14,338 nt of DNA, from positions 1 through 14,338 of the forward strand of contig JANLPS010000174.1 in NCBI GenBank assembly GCA_031367385.1. The letters are read 5' to 3'. The notes under the pieces are model-generated. The model searched no databases, was not told the DNA's origin, and was given only the letters and a program-made list of their open reading frames with translations. This document shows, one piece after another, positions 1,405-11,722 of the stretch (positions are counted from its first letter, which is position 1; each line of letters begins with the position of its first letter). Source of the DNA: Archangium sp. GTDB taxonomy: Bacteria > Myxococcota > Myxococcia > Myxococcales > Myxococcaceae. A program made the translations under genes and the position numbers.

Positions 1405-1438
1405 CATGAACTCCCGTTTTCAAACGCCCGGAGCCTCG

Positions 1439-4400
1439 ATGCTGAAACGTTCTCTTCTTGCCGCAGCGCTGTTCGTCACCGCTTGCGCGCAAAGCAACGG
1501 CGACATCAACCGAGTGCTGCCCAACGTGGTGCGAAAGACCGACCTGCTCGACGGGCAGTGGTTCTTTCGAAACTCGGTGTCGTACACGCCCTTCAACACG
1601 CAATTCACCTTCCCCGGGCAGACCGGGTCGATGGAGAAGCTGGTCTTCGAAGCGCAAGAGACCCTGCTTGTCGGCTACCGCAGCTACCCGTACACGCTGG
1701 GCGCCGAGGCGAACGTCGACCCCACCTCGACCGTCTCGCACACCACCGCGAAGTACTGCGACCCCACCGGCAAGTGCACCAGCAGCACGTATTACGGCTC
1801 GCCGGTCGTCGCTTTTCCCATTCTGTCGCACTTCGACATTCAGCGCGGCTACAGCACCGCGACCGGCGAGCAGACCAACGTCATCTCCGAGAACACCACC
1901 GACCGCCCGTGGAACGAGCGCGAATACATGCGCGTGAACTGGGCCTCGAACGTGCTCAACCTGGGCTCGGGCGTGAACTGGGGCACCGTGCAGAACGCCG
2001 GTGGCAAGTCGAGCACCTCGAACTGGATTCAGCCCAACGAGAAGGGCGAAGACCCCTACGATTGGCCGAGCTTCGAGTACGACAAGGCGAAGAAGCTCAA
2101 GTACTTCGACATTACCGCTCGCTACACTGCGGTGCCCGACACCACCTACATCAACGGCTACGGCAGCGTGCCCAAGTGCTACTTCAACTCGGGCATCTAC
2201 GACTGCACCTCGGCTGAGATCAAGGTTCGCACGTCGATCTCGAAGATCGACCCGGTCTGGGCGCAAGACTACGAGCCGATGGTCTACAGCAACGAGCTGA
2301 TGTCGCTCTTCGGGTACTTTCGAACCGAGCGCCTCAATTGGGACAAGAAGTTCGGCCTGATCGACTCGGCGGTGATTCGCCTCGCGAACCGCCACCGCCT
2401 GTGGAAGCAGTCGTACCAGAAAGACGCCGACGGTCACCCGCTGCCGAACCAGCCCATCGCCGCAGCAGACCGCGAGGTGCAGCCGATCGTCTATTACTTC
2501 ACCCGCGCTGACCGCATGGGCGGCCAAGAGCGCTACGACGAGTTCATGGCGCCCGCGCGCGCGGTGCTCGAGCCCGAGTACAACACCGCCTTTCGCAAGG
2601 CCGTCGCCGCCGCCAAGGGTGACACCACCCCCGATGGGTACCGCAACGTCGGCAACGTCTTCGTGCTCTGCGACAACCCGGTCGCCAAGGGCAACGACCC
2701 GGCCTGCGGGGAGATCGGGTTCTCTCCCAAGTTCGGAGACCTTCGCTACAGCTTCATCAACACCGTCGCCGAGCCGGTCGCCAACGGCCTGCTGGGCTAC
2801 GGCCCGTCGTCTCCCGACCCGGAGACCGGCCAAATCGTCTCGGGCAACTCGAACACGTATCTCTGGGGCGTCGACCTCGACGGCCGCCGGGTGACCGATT
2901 GGGTTTTGTTGCTCCAGGGCGAGAAGCCCGTCAACGACTACATCTCGGGCAGCTCGGTGCAAAACTTCATCAAGAACAACCCGGTCTACAACATCAACGG
3001 CATCGCCAAGCAGAACGCGACCGCGGCGTTGCAGTCTGAGCTGCAGGGCACTCCCACCAAGGGCGTCTCGGTCGGCGCGTTCGACCGGCCGACGCAGCGC
3101 ATGGCCCAGCTGCGAGATCAGCTCGACGCGCGCAAGGGGCTGCCGGTCGCGAGCCGCAACGAGATGCAGGCCGCCGCTGATCAGCTCGCCGCCAACCCGT
3201 CGCTCGAGTCGACCGTGCTCGACAACCCCGACGTGCAAGCCGACCTCGCGAACCTGTTGCCCGAGTTCGCGCAGGAGCAGGCCAAGACCAACCCCGACTT
3301 CATGCGCAGCATGTCGCGCTCGGTGCTGGCCAACATTCAGGCTTCTGAAGAATGGAAGAAGGCGCGTCTTCAGTGGCTGTCGAAGAACAACATCTCGATG
3401 AACGAGTTCTACGACCGCACCCTGCTCGGCGTGGCCAACGAGAAGATCGGCTACCGCAACCGCCGCGTCAAAGAGCTCACTACCGCAGGCAATGCGAGCT
3501 GCGCGAATCAAGCGGCCTGCACCACCGTCGAAGCCAAGGCCCTCGCCGATGGCGAAATCGCCAAGCAGGTTCGCCAGAGCGTCTGGCTCGCCACGACCCT
3601 GCACGAGCTGGGTCACACCTTGAACCTGCGCCACAACTTTCAAGGCTCGTTCGACTCGCTCAATTACAACGACAAGTACTGGCCGCTGCGCAAACAGACC
3701 ATCACGGTCGGCCAGCAGGTCGGCGGCGTCACCGAGCAGCGGTTGCCGCGCACGCCCACCGATTTGCGCACCTCGTTCGAGCTCAACGGCGAGCAGATCG
3801 CCGGAGCGATGACCAACTACGAGTACTCCTCGATCATGGACTACTCGGGCAAGATCTACGGCGACTGGGCCGGCATCGGCAAATACGACGTCGCGGCGAT
3901 CATGTTCGCGTACTCGGGCACCTCGGCCCCCGGCGGCACCGGCATCGCCACGCCTGGCTACGTCGAGGTCTTCAACTCGGCTCGCACCGAGAGCAAGTCG
4001 TTCACCGGTACTGACAGCGCGTCGTTGACGAACAGCGGCGCGGCCTCAGACCTGCCGTTGGTGAACGCCAGCCATTTGAACCCCAACGTGCCCAACTACA
4101 CCGAGCGCTACCACTACACGCTCGCCCCGCTGCACTTTGGTCAGGGCAACACCGTCACCGAGGTGCTCAACGACGGCGTGAACAAGATCAAAGACCGCAA
4201 GTGGGTTCGCTACAGCGAGGTCAAGAAAGACGAAGACAAGGTCGCTGCGTTGTTGGCGGCCGACCCCTCGCTGGCCACCGACCCCGATCGCGCCAGCGGC
4301 CTGTTCGGCACCGTCGCGCTGCGCGTGCCCTACATGTTCTGCTCTGACGAGTCGGCCGACGGCCCGGTGTTGTCATGCAACCGCTTCGACCGAGGCCCCG

Positions 4401-5767
4401 ACTACTTCGAGATGGGCCGCACCAAGCTCGAAGACTATTGGAACTACTACCTCGACTCGCACTTTCGAAAAGATGCGATCAACTTCAACGGCAACCGCGC
4501 GCTCAACTCGGCGTACGGCACGTTCTCGTTCATGGCGACCTCGTACAAGCACTGGGTCTACCAATTTTACAAGACCAGCTCGCGCAACCAAGAACAGGTG
4601 GCCCGCTACCCGATCGACCCCACGCTCCAAGACACGTGGACGATGTCGGTGCTCGACGGCATCAACCAGCACCTCAACGTCTTCTCGGTGCCGCCCTTCG
4701 GCCTCTTCATGTACCGCAACCTGCGCTCAGGCCCCCGGTGGGACGTCATCTCAGAGGGTGACGACTACGACGTGCTCAACGCGACCGGTAAGAAGAAGCT
4801 CGAAGACCTCTACACCTCGCAGCTCGGAGGCCAAGACTACGTTGAGCTGCCTCGCGGCCTCGGGCGTCGCATGTACAGCCGCTACGACTTCAAGTCGGGC
4901 TTCGGGTTCTGGAACCGCATGTCAGAGGCCGGTCACTACAATGACCAGCTGGGCGCGATGTTCGCGGCCGTCATACCCGACACTGACTTTCAGGGCGTCG
5001 ACATCACCGCCGACCAGAACCGCTACAACATCCCCTATTACCTGGTGTTTCGTGACGAGCTGACTCGCACGTTCGGCGCCCTGTGGGCCAACGACGAAGA
5101 AAAAGTGCGACCGGTGCTCTACCGCACGTACGACGAGGCGAACCGGCTGAGCGACACGCCGACCTTGTTCAACCGGGTGCCGGTCAACGGCAGCGACCTC
5201 TTCGCCGGGTTCAACTACCCGACCAGAGAGCTGCAGAAGTGCACTGGCAACCTCAAGTGGCCCAAGTGCTTCAACGCCGAGCAGAACGCCGCCCCCGCCA
5301 ACATTCAAATGACGTGGACCAGCCGGCTCTATGCGCTCTACCTGGGGCTCGCGCTCTTCCGCACCAACTACGACCTCGACTACGCCAAGGCGAACCAGCT
5401 CTACCGCCTGGGCGGCAGCGAAGACTTCAGCGTCGCCCCTGGGTTCGAGACGGTCGAGGTCGCCGACGTGACCACCGGCTCACGGTACGTCGCGATTCAA
5501 AAAGTCGGCGCACCCGCCAACAGCACGGCGGCGGTACGCATGATCAACATCGCCAAAGACTACCTGGTGATGGTCAACGACCCGACCACCAACCCGCTGC
5601 CCGACTTCGTGTTCTTGCGCGGCTACCAGCCGATGCCCGCCTCGCAAGCCAACAACCCTGCCTTGGTCGAAGACCGCCGCCGCTTTTGGACTGAGATCTT
5701 CAGAAATCAAATTCGAGACCTCGACCTCCAGCGCGGCATGTTTCAGGCGTTCGGGAAGGCGTTCTAA
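1439..5767 (+). CDS. Large lipoprotein, zinc-dependent metalloprotease (metzincin; DUF4953/EcxA-like catalytic region), paralog 1
   Basis: ORF 1406..5767. ATG 1439 has GGAG at 1430-1433 and is preferred; 1406 is an alternative start. Lipobox FVTA|C (Cys codon 1484-1486), GPSSPDPETG motif, HELGHTLNLRH (3602-3634), Met-turn SSIMDY (Met 3836-3838), and a YMFCSD...CNRFD motif. Confidence 0.9.
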   Translation: MLKRSLLAAALFVTACAQSNGDINRVLPNVVRKTDLLDGQWFFRNSVSYTPFNTQFTFPGQTGSMEKLVFEAQETLLVGYRSYPYTLGAEANVDPTSTVSHTTAKYCDPTGKCTSSTYYGSPVVAFPILSHFDIQRGYSTATGEQTNVISENTTDRPWNEREYMRVNWASNVLNLGSGVNWGTVQNAGGKSSTSNWIQPNEKGEDPYDWPSFEYDKAKKLKYFDITARYTAVPDTTYINGYGSVPKCYFNSGIYDCTSAEIKVRTSISKIDPVWAQDYEPMVYSNELMSLFGYFRTERLNWDKKFGLIDSAVIRLANRHRLWKQSYQKDADGHPLPNQPIAAADREVQPIVYYFTRADRMGGQERYDEFMAPARAVLEPEYNTAFRKAVAAAKGDTTPDGYRNVGNVFVLCDNPVAKGNDPACGEIGFSPKFGDLRYSFINTVAEPVANGLLGYGPSSPDPETGQIVSGNSNTYLWGVDLDGRRVTDWVLLLQGEKPVNDYISGSSVQNFIKNNPVYNINGIAKQNATAALQSELQGTPTKGVSVGAFDRPTQRMAQLRDQLDARKGLPVASRNEMQAAADQLAANPSLESTVLDNPDVQADLANLLPEFAQEQAKTNPDFMRSMSRSVLANIQASEEWKKARLQWLSKNNISMNEFYDRTLLGVANEKIGYRNRRVKELTTAGNASCANQAACTTVEAKALADGEIAKQVRQSVWLATTLHELGHTLNLRHNFQGSFDSLNYNDKYWPLRKQTITVGQQVGGVTEQRLPRTPTDLRTSFELNGEQIAGAMTNYEYSSIMDYSGKIYGDWAGIGKYDVAAIMFAYSGTSAPGGTGIATPGYVEVFNSARTESKSFTGTDSASLTNSGAASDLPLVNASHLNPNVPNYTERYHYTLAPLHFGQGNTVTEVLNDGVNKIKDRKWVRYSEVKKDEDKVAALLAADPSLATDPDRASGLFGTVALRVPYMFCSDESADGPVLSCNRFDRGPDYFEMGRTKLEDYWNYYLDSHFRKDAINFNGNRALNSAYGTFSFMATSYKHWVYQFYKTSSRNQEQVARYPIDPTLQDTWTMSVLDGINQHLNVFSVPPFGLFMYRNLRSGPRWDVISEGDDYDVLNATGKKKLEDLYTSQLGGQDYVELPRGLGRRMYSRYDFKSGFGFWNRMSEAGHYNDQLGAMFAAVIPDTDFQGVDITADQNRYNIPYYLVFRDELTRTFGALWANDEEKVRPVLYRTYDEANRLSDTPTLFNRVPVNGSDLFAGFNYPTRELQKCTGNLKWPKCFNAEQNAAPANIQMTWTSRLYALYLGLALFRTNYDLDYAKANQLYRLGGSEDFSVAPGFETVEVADVTTGSRYVAIQKVGAPANSTAAVRMINIAKDYLVMVNDPTTNPLPDFVFLRGYQPMPASQANNPALVEDRRRFWTEIFRNQIRDLDLQRGMFQAFGKAF

Positions 5768-5769
5768 CC

Positions 5770-8700
5770 ATGACCACTTTGCTCAACTCGAAAGTTGCTC
5801 CGATGACTGCCTCGTTCTCGAAGCTGACGGTGGCCTGCGCGGCGATGGTGTTGGTGGCCTGTGGCCAGCCGGCGATCATCGACCGCACCCAGCCCAACTA
5901 CATCAAGAAGTCTGACCTCACCTCGGGTACTTGGTACATCCACGAGAGCGTGGTCGACGCGCCCAAGACGCTCACCGGCGCGACGGTCATCGGCTCGTCG
6001 AGCGAGATGGAGAAGATTCGCTGGGAAATTCAAGAGGACATGCTCGTCGCGTACCGCTCGTACGAGGTCGTGGCCGGCGCTGACCCCCGGGTCGACCGCG
6101 CGAAGTCGTCGATCGGTCACGTGGTTACGCAAGACGGCAAACCCTACAAGGGCAACCCGGTGTACGCGTACAAGATCACCAGCCACTTCGACCGGCAGCG
6201 CCAGTACAACGCCTCAACCGGAGAGCAGAGCAACGTGCTGCTCGAAGATACCGCCGACCGCCCGTGGAATGAGCGGGAGTACATACGGGTCAACTGGGGC
6301 AGCTCGCTCATTCGCAACGAGTCTGCGTGCAACGGCCCGTACGATCACGGCAAGTGCTTGCACGGCCTCGTGCTGCCACACTTCATCAGCAGCGAAGACG
6401 CCAGGGCCGAAGACTCGGCGCCGACTTTCGAGCGCGACTCATCGGGCGCGCTGACGTACTTCGACTTCACCTCGCAGCTGCTCACCGAGCCGCCGAGCAT
6501 CTACTACCCGGGCTACGGCCGCCTGCCGTACTGCTTGTTCAACCCCCAGGTCGACTGCGAGACCGCCAACATCAAGGTGCGTACTTCGGTCATGAAGGTC
6601 GATGAGGCCCACGTCACTGACTACGAGCCCCTGGTCTACGGCGAAAAATTGATGAAGAAGTTCGGGTTCTTTCGCAACGAGACCTACGCCTACAACCGCG
6701 ACTACTACTACACCGAGTCGGGTCGGCAGCTCTTCGCGATGCGCCACGACATCTGGAAGCAGAGCAAAGAGCCGATGGTCGACGCCAACGGCAACCAGGT
6801 GGTCGACGCGGTCACCGGGTATCAGAAGCTGCAGACCATTCCCGTCAGCAAGCGGGCGCTCAAGCCCGTCGTCTACTACATGACCGAGAACACCCCTCGC
6901 AGCCTCTGGGGCGCGGCCACCATGCGCCACGCGCAGGCCGATGGGTTCAACCCGAAAGACACCATCGAAGCCAGCTGGGACCACTCATTTCGCCGCACCG
7001 TCGCGGTGCCGCGGGGCCTCGAGGCCAACGACATTCCTCAGATGTTCTACATCTGCGAGTCACCGGTGCCTGCTGGTGCGCCCGAGGCCTGCGGCAAGCC
7101 GGGTACCTACGCGCGCATCGGAGACCTCCGGTACAACATCATCCCCTACGTTGAGCAGAACGCGGGCGGGTTGCTCGGCCTGGGCCCCTCAGCGATGGAC
7201 CCCGAGACCGGCGAAGTGGTGCACGCGGCGGCGAACGTCTACGGCCTCGGCATCGACACCTGGTCGGGCGGCTCGCAGCAGATCATCGACGTCGTCAACG
7301 GCGACCTGTCGATCGAAAAGCTGGTCACCGGCCAAGATCAGAAGGACTACGTGTTCTCGAACTTGAACGCGACCGACGCGCGGCGCCCCTTGAGCGGGCC
7401 CTGGCAGTCGCAGCAAGGGCTGACCGCTGACCCGACCAAGCCGACCTCGACCTTCATGAAGACCAGCGGTCACCTCGCCGACCTGATGGCGGTGTGGAAA
7501 TCGCAAGGCAGCATGCCGGTGCAGAAGCAGAACCGTCGCGCGGTGGTCGAGCAGTTGCTCGCCAAGAACCCGGCGCTCGAGAATGAGCTCATCAACCTGC
7601 CTGAGGTGAAGCTCGGCCTCGACTCACTGGTGACCGACTCGGCCTTCAAGGCGAAGCTGAGCGGAGACCCGGCGTTCATGCACCAGGTCGCCCGCAACAT
7701 GCTGCTGGGCATCGACCCCATCGAAGACGCGCGTTCGCGCGCCAAGAACACGCCCGACCCGACCGTGGGCTGCCTGTTCGAGGCCTCGTACGACGACCCC
7801 GATTACGTCGGCCTCGCCAAGCGCAAGAAGAAGCTCTACGGCGAGCTCGTCACCAAGCTGGGCACCAGCGGCAACGCCAGCTGCGCGAACCAGTCGAGCT
7901 GCACTCCCGACGAGGCCGCCACCCTGGCCCGCACCGGAGTGTGGGACTCGCTGCGCCGCGAAGCCTACCGTTCGGTCACCACCCATGAAATCGGCCACAC
8001 CCTGGGCCTGATGCACAACTTCATCGGCTCGGCTGACGCCCTGAACTACCAAGACGGCTACTGGGACCTTCGCAAAGACACCATCGGCGTGCAGGTCGGC
8101 GGCAAGCGCGTGTTGGCGGTGACTCCGCAGAACATGCTCGACGCGACCAAGCCCAACCAGCGGCAGCTCGACAACGACATGTACGAGTACACCTACTCGA
8201 CGATCATGGACTACGGCGCCCGGGTCAACTCGACCAACATGGGCACCGGCAAGTACGACGACGCGGCGATTCTCTTCGCCTACTCGGGCGGCTTCGAGCC
8301 CGGCTGGGTCGAGGTCTTCAACCAGATGCGCACCGACTACGATCAGCCGAACATCTCGGTACCGGTCGACAACCAGGCCAAGGTGTTCACCGTTCGCGGC
8401 GCGCACGTCGAGATACCGGTGGCGATTGCCGAGCACTACACGCCGGTCTCGAGCCTTTACACCGACAAGTACCACTACTCGACGCTGCCCTTTCACTTCG
8501 CCGACCAGAGCGCCTCGTTCGAGACGATGCTCGACCAGGGCATCGCGCGCATGAACAGCCGCTCGTTTCGCCGCTGGAGCGAGATGAGCGCGCATTACGC
8601 CCGCCTCGAAGTGGCCCTCAAAGACTTCAACTTGAGCCAGGCCGGCTTGCAGCAGTCTGACTACGTGCGAGCGCGCGACATCATCAACATGGCGGGCGGG

Positions 8701-10131
8701 GCCGCGATACCGGCCGAGGTGCCCTACATGTACTGCTCTGACTACGAAGTCGGAGCCAACCTGATGTGCAACCGCCACGACCAGGGCGCCGACGTCTACG
8801 AGATGACCAGCAAGTGGGTCGAGCGCTTCAACCAGTCGTACGTGTTCTCGAACTTTCGGCGCGACCGCTTGATGTACTCGCCGGCCTCGGTCGCCTCGGG
8901 CAAGTTCGGCCGCTACCTGGGCAACATTCCCAATGTGTACCAGCAGTGGTTGTTCAACATTTATGGCCTCAGCAACTACCTGCAGCTTGCGCCCGAAGAG
9001 CTCGACAAGTTCTACGGCTTGGGCGACCCGCTCTGGCAAAACTACTGGACGATGGCGGTCGTCGACTCGACCAACACGCTGATGCAGCAGCTCGCGGTGC
9101 CGTCAATCGGCTACCACGGCCGCCGCGCCGACGGCACCTGGGTCTCGATACCGACGACCGACAATCAGAACCGCCGGCTGGGTGACGCGGCCGAGGCCGA
9201 GTTCGTGACCCGCATGAAGCTGCCTGCCAACGGCGGGTACTCCGACGTGCTCTACGTGCCCCGTGGCGCGGGCCGCAGCATGTTCTCGGTGCACGACACC
9301 TTTGGCTACGACAACTACTCGCGCGTCAACGAGGCCGGCCACTTCTGGGACGTGTACGCCTCGATGTTGGCGCTCACCACCAGCGAGACCAACTTCTTGG
9401 GCGTCGACCGTGGCTCCGACGCGCTCAAGTATTCGCTGCCGTACTACACCACGTTCAACCGTGAGCTCGCGCCGCTGTTCAGCGCGTACTGGGCAGAGAC
9501 CCCTGAGGTGTTCGCCCCGATGTTGGGCAAGAACCCCGACGGCACCGGGTCGGTCGTGCTGCCGACGTTCTTGCGCTCAGACACCTACGTGTACGGGTTC
9601 AACTACCCGCCCGCGGCGACGCCTCCGGTCGATGCCAATGGAGCGCCGATGGTGATGTCGAAGGTGCTGCCGACGCCGACCTGGAGCTCGCGCTTCTACG
9701 CCCAGCTGTGGGGCATGGCGTTCTTCACCACCAACTTCAACCTGGAGTACGCCGAGTACAGCAAGGTGTACCGCTTGGGCTCGAGCGAGGCGCTCACCCC
9801 GGCCGCCGGGTTCGATGTGATCAAGTTCGACGACCCGTTCGGTGGTGGGTACATCTACGCGGCGCTGCAGAAGCAGGGCGACACCTCGAACCCCGCTGGC
9901 CCGGTGATGGTCAGCCGCGCCGCCGCCCAAACCGACAAGTGGAAGCAGGCGTGCCGGCTCGACAAGGGCTTGCCGCCGAACGCCACGGTCGATCTGCCCT
10001 GCCGCGGGGGCACTGGCACCAACAAGGTCGACGGCAAGAGCACCGCGCAGTGGGAGAGCGACGTGCGCGAGAGCGTGCGGTCACTCGAGATGATGCGGGG
10101 CCTGTACGACATCTTCGGCCGGGCGCTCTAA
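5770..10131 (+). CDS. Large lipoprotein, zinc-dependent metalloprotease (metzincin; DUF4953/EcxA-like catalytic region), paralog 2
   Basis: 1453-aa ORF starting 2 nt after the previous stop, with GGGAAGG at 5753-5759. Lipobox LVA|C (Cys 5860-5862), GPSAMDPETG, HEIGHTLGLMH (7984-8016), Met-turn STIMDY (Met 8206-8208), YMYCSD...CNRHD. It is colinear with paralog 1 along its whole length. Confidence 0.9.
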   Translation: MTTLLNSKVAPMTASFSKLTVACAAMVLVACGQPAIIDRTQPNYIKKSDLTSGTWYIHESVVDAPKTLTGATVIGSSSEMEKIRWEIQEDMLVAYRSYEVVAGADPRVDRAKSSIGHVVTQDGKPYKGNPVYAYKITSHFDRQRQYNASTGEQSNVLLEDTADRPWNEREYIRVNWGSSLIRNESACNGPYDHGKCLHGLVLPHFISSEDARAEDSAPTFERDSSGALTYFDFTSQLLTEPPSIYYPGYGRLPYCLFNPQVDCETANIKVRTSVMKVDEAHVTDYEPLVYGEKLMKKFGFFRNETYAYNRDYYYTESGRQLFAMRHDIWKQSKEPMVDANGNQVVDAVTGYQKLQTIPVSKRALKPVVYYMTENTPRSLWGAATMRHAQADGFNPKDTIEASWDHSFRRTVAVPRGLEANDIPQMFYICESPVPAGAPEACGKPGTYARIGDLRYNIIPYVEQNAGGLLGLGPSAMDPETGEVVHAAANVYGLGIDTWSGGSQQIIDVVNGDLSIEKLVTGQDQKDYVFSNLNATDARRPLSGPWQSQQGLTADPTKPTSTFMKTSGHLADLMAVWKSQGSMPVQKQNRRAVVEQLLAKNPALENELINLPEVKLGLDSLVTDSAFKAKLSGDPAFMHQVARNMLLGIDPIEDARSRAKNTPDPTVGCLFEASYDDPDYVGLAKRKKKLYGELVTKLGTSGNASCANQSSCTPDEAATLARTGVWDSLRREAYRSVTTHEIGHTLGLMHNFIGSADALNYQDGYWDLRKDTIGVQVGGKRVLAVTPQNMLDATKPNQRQLDNDMYEYTYSTIMDYGARVNSTNMGTGKYDDAAILFAYSGGFEPGWVEVFNQMRTDYDQPNISVPVDNQAKVFTVRGAHVEIPVAIAEHYTPVSSLYTDKYHYSTLPFHFADQSASFETMLDQGIARMNSRSFRRWSEMSAHYARLEVALKDFNLSQAGLQQSDYVRARDIINMAGGAAIPAEVPYMYCSDYEVGANLMCNRHDQGADVYEMTSKWVERFNQSYVFSNFRRDRLMYSPASVASGKFGRYLGNIPNVYQQWLFNIYGLSNYLQLAPEELDKFYGLGDPLWQNYWTMAVVDSTNTLMQQLAVPSIGYHGRRADGTWVSIPTTDNQNRRLGDAAEAEFVTRMKLPANGGYSDVLYVPRGAGRSMFSVHDTFGYDNYSRVNEAGHFWDVYASMLALTTSETNFLGVDRGSDALKYSLPYYTTFNRELAPLFSAYWAETPEVFAPMLGKNPDGTGSVVLPTFLRSDTYVYGFNYPPAATPPVDANGAPMVMSKVLPTPTWSSRFYAQLWGMAFFTTNFNLEYAEYSKVYRLGSSEALTPAAGFDVIKFDDPFGGGYIYAALQKQGDTSNPAGPVMVSRAAAQTDKWKQACRLDKGLPPNATVDLPCRGGTGTNKVDGKSTAQWESDVRESVRSLEMMRGLYDIFGRAL

Positions 10132-10141
10132 GCCCGGGGCA

Positions 10142-10171
10142 GGGGGGACCAGTCGGGTTCCCTCCGTTCGT
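10142..10171 (+). terminator. Possible terminator hairpin after the protease operon
   Basis: Stem ggggggacc (10142-10150)/ggttccctc (10156-10164), 9 bp including 2 G-U pairs, 10 nt after the stop. The U-tract is poor (cgttcgt). Confidence 0.35.
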
Positions 10172-10276
10172 CCTGAGGGACTCGAAGCCTGCCCTGAGGA
10201 ATCGAAGGGGACCCGTTTGTGCGAGTGCTCGGCGGTCCTTCGACTGCGGCCCTTGGCCTCCGCTCAGGATGACCGG
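10164..10276. repeat. Degenerate palindromic REP-like element related to the one at 28-123
   Basis: Outer arms ccgttcgtcctgag (10164-10177)/ctcaggatgaccgg (10263-10276) match at 12 of 14 positions. Inner arms are tcgaaggggacc (10202-10213)/ggtccttcga (10234-10243). There is an internal direct repeat cctgagggactcgaag (10172-10187)/cctgaggaatcgaag (10193-10207). It shares the TGAG-n3-4-TCGAA core. Confidence 0.7.
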
Positions 10277-10307
10277 GTTCCAAATAGGGGCTAAGACTGC
10301 CCCCCAC

Positions 10308-11129
10308 GTGCAACTGGCGCCTCGTCAGCTCGACCTGTTTCGTGCGCCGAAGCCCGGCCAAGCGCCGAGCGCGACCGCCCTCAAGCCGCAGCTGGTCAGC
10401 CCACCAGCGCCGACCCCCGTCGAGCCTCACCGCCTACCGGCGCAGACGCAGGTCACCGGGCTGGCGAAGTCACTCGCGCAGAAGCTCGCCCATCACGTCG
10501 GCTCCGAGCTCAAGGTGTTGCTGACCGTTCACGACAACAAGTCGACGATGATCAGCTTTCGGCGTCAGCCGCCGTTGCTCAAAGTGCGGTTGCATCACCT
10601 CTTTCTCGAAGCCCCCGACACCGTCATCGAAGCCATCGCCGACTACGCCGCGCGTGGCCGCCGGGCCTCGGGCCGGGTGCTCGACGAGTTCATCGCGAGG
10701 CATCAAGAGCGCATCAAGGCCACCGCCTCGACCCCGACCAGCCTCGTCGCGCGCGGAGAGTGCTTCGACCTCCAGGCCTTGTTCGATGAGATGAACGCGC
10801 AGTACTTCGGCTCGGCCATCACCGCGCGCATCGGCTGGGGCCGCAACACCTCGAAGCGGCGCCGCAAATCGATTCGCCTCGGCGTGTACGACCACAAGGC
10901 CCGCGAGATTCGCATTCACCCGGCGCTCGACAAGCCCGACGTGCCGCGCTTCTTCGTCGCCTTCATCGTGTTTCACGAAATGCTGCACCAGCTCTTCCCC
11001 AGCGGGCGAGACACGGGCCGCAACGTGCACCACCCGCGCGCCTTTCGCGCTCGCGAGAAGACCTTCGCCCAGTTCGCCGCCGCGATGCAGTGGGAGCGCG
11101 AGCACTTGGGTCAGCTCTTGCGTCGCTGA
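10308..11129 (+). CDS. SprT/YgjP(DUF45)-like zinc metalloprotease-domain protein with N-terminal QLDLF motif
   Basis: 3' part of ORF 9708..11129; the start is probably GTG 10308 (alternative ATG 10269). It has the SprT-like pattern LFDEMNAQYF..I.WGR..RLGVY..IRIHPALD, then HEMLH (10974-10988) and a downstream HHPRAF giving a third His. Confidence 0.8.
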   Translation: MQLAPRQLDLFRAPKPGQAPSATALKPQLVSPPAPTPVEPHRLPAQTQVTGLAKSLAQKLAHHVGSELKVLLTVHDNKSTMISFRRQPPLLKVRLHHLFLEAPDTVIEAIADYAARGRRASGRVLDEFIARHQERIKATASTPTSLVARGECFDLQALFDEMNAQYFGSAITARIGWGRNTSKRRRKSIRLGVYDHKAREIRIHPALDKPDVPRFFVAFIVFHEMLHQLFPSGRDTGRNVHHPRAFRAREKTFAQFAAAMQWEREHLGQLLRR

Positions 11130-11722
11130 CCCGTCTTCTTCTTCGCGAGCACCGCGAGGCCACGCGGCGAGACCTCGTAGCCGACCTCGAAGCTCTGGGT
11201 CAGGCCCAGCTTCTTGAGCTTGCGCACATCGACCTTGAACGGCAGCGTCTCGCGGCCAAGCGACGCGGCGAGCTTCGATGCGGCGATGCGCGGGCGCTTT
11301 TGAATCAGCTTCAAGACCTTTCGTGTCCACGGTTCGTCGCGGTCGAGGCGGGCGAGCTTTTTTTCAATCACGTCGAGCTCGTCGGGCGTGGGGGCGGTGA
11401 GCGCAGTCTCGACGCGATCTCCATCGCCTCCGTAGTGGAGCTCGATGCGAAACATCGCCAGGTCATCGGTTGCGGTGTCGGGGGCGAACTGTCTCACGTA
11501 CTCGACGAGCTCGGCCTTGTCGGTGAAGCCGGCCTTCTTCGCGTCGGCCGATGTGATGCGCCCCAAGGTGGTGGTGCGCAGGGCGTCGACCTCGACCACT
11601 CCGATCGGGTGCACGCGATACCGGCCTTTGGGCTTGACTCGCGCCTTGGGCCACTGCCGAAAGGAGAGGGTAATCGAACCATCGACGAGCCCAGCATGAA
11701 ACCGTTTCTGGAAGAGGAACAC
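11111..11722 (-). CDS. ASCH/PUA-like domain protein with C-terminal winged helix-turn-helix
   Basis: 203 aa, GTG start. The N-terminal half is ASCH-like (G.IT..FR.W...; ITSADAKKAGF). The C-terminal ASKLAASLGRETLPFKVDVRKLKKLGLTQSFEVGYEVSPRG has a wHTH pattern. It overlaps the convergent SprT-like gene by 19 bp. Confidence 0.7.
   Translation of the reverse strand: MFLFQKRFHAGLVDGSITLSFRQWPKARVKPKGRYRVHPIGVVEVDALRTTTLGRITSADAKKAGFTDKAELVEYVRQFAPDTATDDLAMFRIELHYGGDGDRVETALTAPTPDELDVIEKKLARLDRDEPWTRKVLKLIQKRPRIAASKLAASLGRETLPFKVDVRKLKKLGLTQSFEVGYEVSPRGLAVLAKKKTGQRRKS

Follow-up and report, generated by a model that had tools for sequence, protein, structure and literature searches.

A gene of Archangium sp. 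encodes a previously undescribed form of SprT-like zincin, a real and conserved feature in which a predicted docking motif for the bacterial beta-clamp (DnaN) is joined by a linker and an additional domain to a protease-type domain. Because the zincin domain follows the predicted clamp-docking motif, a protease stationed at replicating DNA is likely. Confidence falls stepwise from the binding of DnaN, through peptidase activity and contact with DNA, to crosslinks or roadblocks as substrates and lastly to self-cleavage. The architecture of the protein, its start upstream of the motif, and the conservation of the motif, the zinc ligands and the catalytic glutamate can be read directly from the sequences.

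The gene lies in a window of 14,338 nucleotides, the whole stretch of DNA that was analysed. It is present as one copy in the source genome (7.97 Mb, 98% complete), and 987 homologues were retrieved at E<=0.001, the named ones being assigned to Myxococcota, Archangium and Myxococcaceae. The features of the gene and of its product are as follows.

10292..10297, + strand: -10-like box TAAGAC, 10 nt ahead of GTG 10308
10308..11129, + strand: whole gene, 273 aa, GTG start, predicted pI 11
10326..10340, + strand: QLDLF, predicted beta-clamp (DnaN) binding motif, aa 7-11, fitting the QL[S/D]LF consensus
10341..10436, + strand: Pro/Ala-rich linker of variable length, aa 12-43, poorly aligned
10437..10727, + strand: conserved middle domain, aa ~44-140, 95 residues, with a helix, TDNxSTMxS, RxHHMFLxAP and a helix, without HExxH
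10755..11126, + strand: SprT-like zincin domain, aa ~150-273, with basic loop, HExxH, third His and YgjP-like helical tail
10854-10868, + strand: KRRRK basic loop, aa 183-187
10974-10988, + strand: HEMLH active-site motif, aa 223-227
11031-11033, + strand: third ligand H242, downstream of HEMLH

Start codon and clamp-binding motif

The sequence-only reading had placed QLDLF near the N-terminus and had named a start 3' of it as grounds for giving up the clamp hypothesis. In the translated ORF the motif occupies aa 7-11, and the only in-frame ATG, GTG or TTG codons from position 10100 to the middle domain, 10269 (ATG) and 10308 (GTG), both lie upstream of it. A start codon downstream of the motif is ruled out, since the first such option, V70, sits inside the conserved middle domain. 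A TAnnnT-like box 5-10 nt ahead of the N-terminal start was found at 64 of 114 motif-bearing loci, compared with 17 of 1,503 internal start codons, the pattern having been chosen post hoc from the sequences and the best of several starts being allowed per locus. As the -10-like box is enriched before N-terminal starts, the GTG at 10308 and a separate promoter are favoured, and the gene is likely transcribed from its own promoter into a leaderless or near-leaderless mRNA. The 200 nt ahead of the gene contained no M. xanthus-type LexA box, with up to 4 mismatches allowed. A hydrophobic leader is absent (best 11-residue Kyte-Doolittle mean of the N-terminal region, 0.37), in agreement with the earlier view that the protein lacks a signal peptide. 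Just upstream of the gene, a pair of REP-like palindromic elements spans positions 10161-10279, and the genome has 40 further partial matches to it.

QL[S/D]LF is the consensus of beta-clamp binding motifs (PMC11139829; PMC12309361), and pentameric and hexameric forms of the motif occupy the same DnaN pocket (PMC11139829). The pocket residues T172, G174, H175, R176 and L177 were invariant in 29 DnaNs. Only 3 of the 5,669 gene-like ORFs of the source genome carry QL[SD]LF within their first 130 aa, so that its placement here is beyond chance. The wider pattern QL[SDG]LF occurs in MutS, Pol II, Pol IV, DUF72, ExoIII-like and radical-SAM proteins of this genome, six of the eight candidates scanned having a Pfam match; the ExoIII-like protein (L294, G000:C37:9404-10459, + strand), which ends in a C-terminal QLDLFGNAKT, is another candidate clamp partner.

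Conservation of the motif was assessed with the published definition, Q-phi-x-[LM]-[FL] for the pentamer and Q-phi-x-[LM]-x-[FL] for the hexamer, in 140 non-redundant full-length loci (150 loci less six without the anchor, namely five short forms and L059, and less four duplicates). The N-terminal tail fits this definition in 93 of them (74 pentamers and 19 hexamers) and does not in 47, against a background of 2.9% of the 5,669 gene-like ORFs of the source genome; 90 of the 93 matching motifs lie no more than 14 codons from a start. Looser patterns, tuned on the data, matched 108-116 of 144 loci. When a divergent member served as the query, 107 of 120 matches, mostly close kin, had the motif, and among 150 distant representatives it was present in 62 (68 under a relaxed pattern), with 56 lacking it, 19 too short and 7 unscored. 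None of the five cyanobacterial plasmid homologues inspected, out of 11 matching records, carries it.

In a tree built by a quick method from 80 core sequences, pentamers and hexamers replace each other between well-supported (starred) sisters, such as QLALPF and QMSLF, or QLELF beside QLDLDL and QLELAL, and the starred branches force at least eight changes of the pentamer label. The motif is conserved, with swaps of form, across the phylum and in Thermoanaerobaculia, so that a lack of conservation, which would have told against the clamp hypothesis, was not observed. Within an otherwise hypervariable N-terminal tail, the glutamine and the two hydrophobic anchors alone are conserved. The Pro-rich linker described earlier was also recovered (10 Pro in aa 1-43); its composition suggests that it is likely disordered, and the loci differ in the distance from the motif to the middle-domain anchor, which spans 52 to 155 residues. 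Taken at the sequence level, the QLDLF tail very probably binds the DnaN clamp.

Catalytic and middle domains

The HEMLH...H domain and the KRRRK patch reported from the letters alone are present in the translation at aa 223-227, H242 and aa 183-187. The zinc ligands H223, H227 and H242 are kept in all 162 aligned sequences and E224 in 161 of them. The loop preceding the active-site strands has a median of 6 K/R, and the median core pI is 10.7. The window protein itself reaches the Pfam SprT-like profile (PF10263) at E 4.4e-4 with 20.5 bits, below the cut-off of 25.6, and does not match the YgjP-like profile (PF01863). Across the family, SprT-like matched 38 of 43 members (E<=0.05) and YgjP-like 10 of 43, all weakly, with best E-values of 8e-8 versus 1.4e-3; two of the five cyanobacterial homologues exceed the SprT-like cut-off. 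WLM gave no Pfam match among the 43 members and no Wss1 chain was found in PDB at E<=10. The only PDB matches at E<1 were human SPRTN chains (6mdx at E 6.8e-4, the other at 8e-3), in an alignment of 96 profile positions that includes the first helix.

About 65 columns of the catalytic helix and C-terminal tail can be aligned with 12 YgjP proteins, at a probability of 94-95%; E. coli YgjP itself aligns poorly (13-19%), and E. coli SprT reaches 53% with a deep profile. By these profile comparisons the catalytic domain is intermediate between SprT and YgjP. By sequence the catalytic domain is nearer to SprT/SPRTN than to YgjP or Wss1, in line with the earlier assignment; the C-terminal tail is YgjP-like. 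A CxxC/CxC zinc-binding subdomain after HExxH was present in 0 of 161 sequences scored. The domain probably has peptidase activity. The 98%-complete source genome yielded no further SprT or YgjP gene, and an NCBIfam search with the window protein returned no match.

The conserved middle domain had been passed over in the sequence-only reading. Among the 162 aligned sequences, N77 is kept in 160, R94 and H96 in 154 each and F99 in all 162. Comparison with Pfam, PHROG and PDB gave no consistent match, the Atlas returned only unnamed clusters, and the likeness to E. coli YgjP is faint (hhalign probability 8%); the domain is possibly a degenerate YgjP/zincin-like fold. An internal duplication relating the middle and catalytic domains was considered and found unsupported (hhalign probability 0.5-0.7%).

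Distribution, gene neighbourhood and the M. xanthus orthologue

A homologue is present in 124 of 151 phylum (Myxococcota) genomes, and classical YgjP in only 21 of them. Relatives were also found in Thermoanaerobaculia, a name given for a few matches, and on cyanobacterial plasmids (11 records). Many Myxococcaceae possess three copies: one with the motif and HEMLH, one with the motif and HAMLH or HALLH, and one with HEMLH without the motif (L032, L034, L036). The second kind (L031, 1527-2267; L033; L035) keeps the motif and the zinc ligands while its catalytic Glu is replaced by Ala, and is a candidate clamp-binding pseudo-protease. Five short forms (L064-L067, L069) consist of the SprT part only, with neither motif nor middle domain, and belong to one family with genomes of 1.3-2.5 Mb. 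Phage records contained no match to the protein and PADLOC returned none, so that a defence role was rejected. The family's catalytic domain was also met at the C-terminus of a 792-aa ResIII-type SF2 helicase (P0395); such a fusion is a singleton rather than a general feature, since the helicase part alone matched in 4 of 201 genomes (E<=1e-30).

Neighbourhoods were counted at 150 loci with flanks of 1.5-4 kb and, separately, at 80 metagenome loci. In the first set rqcH/NFACT occurs a short way upstream in the same orientation at 47 loci, a pyruvate kinase gene downstream at 51, and recA near the gene at only 3. In the second, an MBL-fold hydrolase gene is adjacent at 53 of the 80 Thermoanaerobaculia-like loci, and the neighbour clusters scanned included no repair genes. 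Since the neighbours are not repair genes, genomic context lends little support to a repair function. Other genes were observed nearby. In the window, an exported protein of 401 aa that falls in no family (199-1404) stands ahead of two tandem 1,453-aa secreted or lipoprotein-like Met-zincins with weak DUF4953 matches (1406-5767 and 5770-10131, + strand), and this cluster precedes the SprT-like gene in 22 related loci. A convergent gene on the - strand (11111-11722), ASCH-like with a winged helix, overlaps the SprT-like 3' end by 19 nt and recurs at 8 loci. A MOSC-MGMT (alkyltransferase-like) fusion gene is divergent from two of the five cyanobacterial plasmid homologues (L185:6771-7562, L188:6780-7502).

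By synteny, that is by gene order rather than sequence, the M. xanthus orthologue is MXAN_6300. The published order is beta-glucosidase, a 1,458-nt gene, MXAN_6300, pyk and a phosphodiesterase (PMC6791715), and the orthology is proposed because order and sizes match those of L084 and L113, two named loci. During development its RNA stays at a low, even level of 40-77 RPKM, similar to that of the neighbouring genes (PMC6791715). The protein has been detected. Under mitomycin C its log2 change was -0.08 after 5 h and, after 10 h, -1.58 (~3-fold down), which is significant and one of 196 decreases at that time; a lexA mutant showed -1.28, short of the fold cut-off (PMC12288472). MXAN_6300 is not SOS-induced, as it rises neither with mitomycin C nor with loss of lexA. 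The drop after mitomycin C is compatible with self-cleavage, but unspecific. The supplements of PMC9705874 and PMC7029660 contain no row for MXAN_6300.

Proposed role, rival readings and known systems

In the proposed mechanism the N-terminal tail would dock on DnaN, and the linker would give the enzyme access to DNA close to the clamp. Contact with DNA would be made by the basic loop together with the middle domain, in place of the zinc-binding subdomain and basic region of SPRTN. The zinc site would cleave proteins that are trapped on DNA or crosslinked to it, either at the fork or behind it. The enzyme would be made constitutively and may cleave itself after damage. This mechanism as a whole, a DnaN-docked constitutive zinc protease cutting DNA-trapped or crosslinked proteins, is put forward tentatively, at a little under even confidence; crosslinks or roadblocks as the substrates are conceivable and slightly more doubtful. 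The fuller version is more tentative still: a clamp-recruited crosslink protease switched by DNA through its middle domain, a bacterial counterpart of SPRTN, convergent or anciently shared, which most Myxococcota carry, as do Thermoanaerobaculia, and whose regulator would be the pseudo-protease paralogue. The crosslink role is only inferred: the SPRTN zinc-binding subdomain is missing, the tail is YgjP-like, the genes nearby do not belong to repair, the motif is lacking in the cyanobacterial homologues inspected and in some paralogues, and mitomycin C does not induce MXAN_6300.

The motif and active-site evidence would apply equally to a clamp-tethered regulatory protease, bound to DnaN and cutting specific clamp partners or replisome or replication-control proteins instead of crosslinked ones. 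Such an enzyme, which the flat expression of MXAN_6300, its lack of induction by damage and the absence of a SPRTN-type zinc-binding subdomain would suit, and for which the motif-bearing Glu-less paralogue suggests a regulator or competitor, is nonetheless unlikely: a strongly basic core with a conserved, likewise basic loop suits contact with nucleic acid, the nearest solved relative is the DNA-dependent SPRTN, and the neighbourhoods link no candidate substrate gene. Somewhat less likely again is a clamp-tethered, YgjP-type metallohydrolase that is not a protease and whose substrates near the fork would be nucleotides or nucleic acid. E. coli YgjP is annotated as a putative metal-dependent hydrolase and has been assigned as a UTP pyrophosphatase. 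The better and more frequent SprT-like matches, the SPRTN alignment reaching into the first helix, and the position of E. coli YgjP below E. coli SprT all argue against this reading, despite the alignment of catalytic helix and tail to YgjP proteins, the ten weak Pfam matches, the faintly YgjP-like middle domain and the scarcity of classical YgjP in the phylum.

It is improbable that the protein is a general cytoplasmic peptidase whose motif is dispensable or serves some partner apart from DnaN. About one third of the loci lack the motif or have it in degenerate form, as do all the cyanobacterial homologues inspected; however, the retention of only the Q and hydrophobic anchors and the repeated pentamer/hexamer swaps fit selection by the DnaN pocket. 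As for a peptidase of ribosome quality control that would act alongside RqcH on stalled nascent chains, the clamp motif would have no role in it, and the upstream position of rqcH, from which the idea derives, is limited to Myxococcales, is lost in the source genome (where rqcH is on a different contig) and is not found among the recurrent neighbour clusters of the 80 other loci. With the SprT-like gene likely having its own promoter as well, this explanation is very improbable indeed.

For the preferred DnaN-docked protease, the literature searched, with most subscription journals outside the search, contained no description of a clamp-binding bacterial SprT protein or of MXAN_6300, no dedicated bacterial crosslink protease and no protease among beta-clamp partners. 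The family offers a concrete candidate for replication-coupled proteolysis in bacteria, and the question is directly testable because its orthologue by synteny, MXAN_6300, belongs to M. xanthus, which is genetically tractable and not a pathogen. Even with substrates other than crosslinks, a zincin tethered to the clamp would be a new class of replisome visitor.

Human SPRTN/DVC1 is among the closest known systems. The metalloprotease subdomain is homologous (6mdx), with HExxH, a downstream His and a basic patch, and both proteins carry a sliding-clamp motif on a flexible tail, that of SPRTN being a PIP box (PMC9240642). The proposal of a bacterial SPRTN analogue is partly supported, by the architecture, the motif and the kinship of the catalytic domain to SprT/SPRTN; it falls short in the zinc-binding subdomain, repair neighbours and damage induction, and in the YgjP-like tail. 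Unlike SPRTN, the window protein has no zinc-binding subdomain and no recognised UBZ or SH domain, its clamp motif is N-terminal and of bacterial type, a middle domain is added, and the conserved basic loop lies inside the domain rather than after it. The zinc-binding subdomain helps SPRTN to bind DNA, and SPRTN PIP mutants still degrade crosslinks (PMC9240642). Despite its SPRTN-like architecture, the protein is not classed as an SPRTN because this subdomain was not found.

Bacterial SprT/YggI (PF10263) is similar in the region of HExxH and of the third His, where E. coli YggI can be aligned with the protein, but YggI has a Cys-rich C-terminus and neither middle domain nor N-terminal tail, and the window protein scores under the family's Pfam cut-off. 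With YgjP-like/DUF45 (PF01863) it shares the HExxH helix, third His and helical tail, whereas few members match that profile and the middle domain has no significant alignment. Yeast Wss1 (WLM) is likewise a zincin without the zinc-binding subdomain of SPRTN (PMC9240642), from which the protein differs in lacking any WLM or Wss1 match. In the text of a beta-clamp review (PMC11139829) the word 'protease' does not occur. The motif classes are those of the clamp partners Pol II, Pol IV, MutS and Hda, and the clamp motif of Hda is also located in a disordered N-terminus (PMC11139829); unlike these known partners, the cargo here is a protease-type domain.
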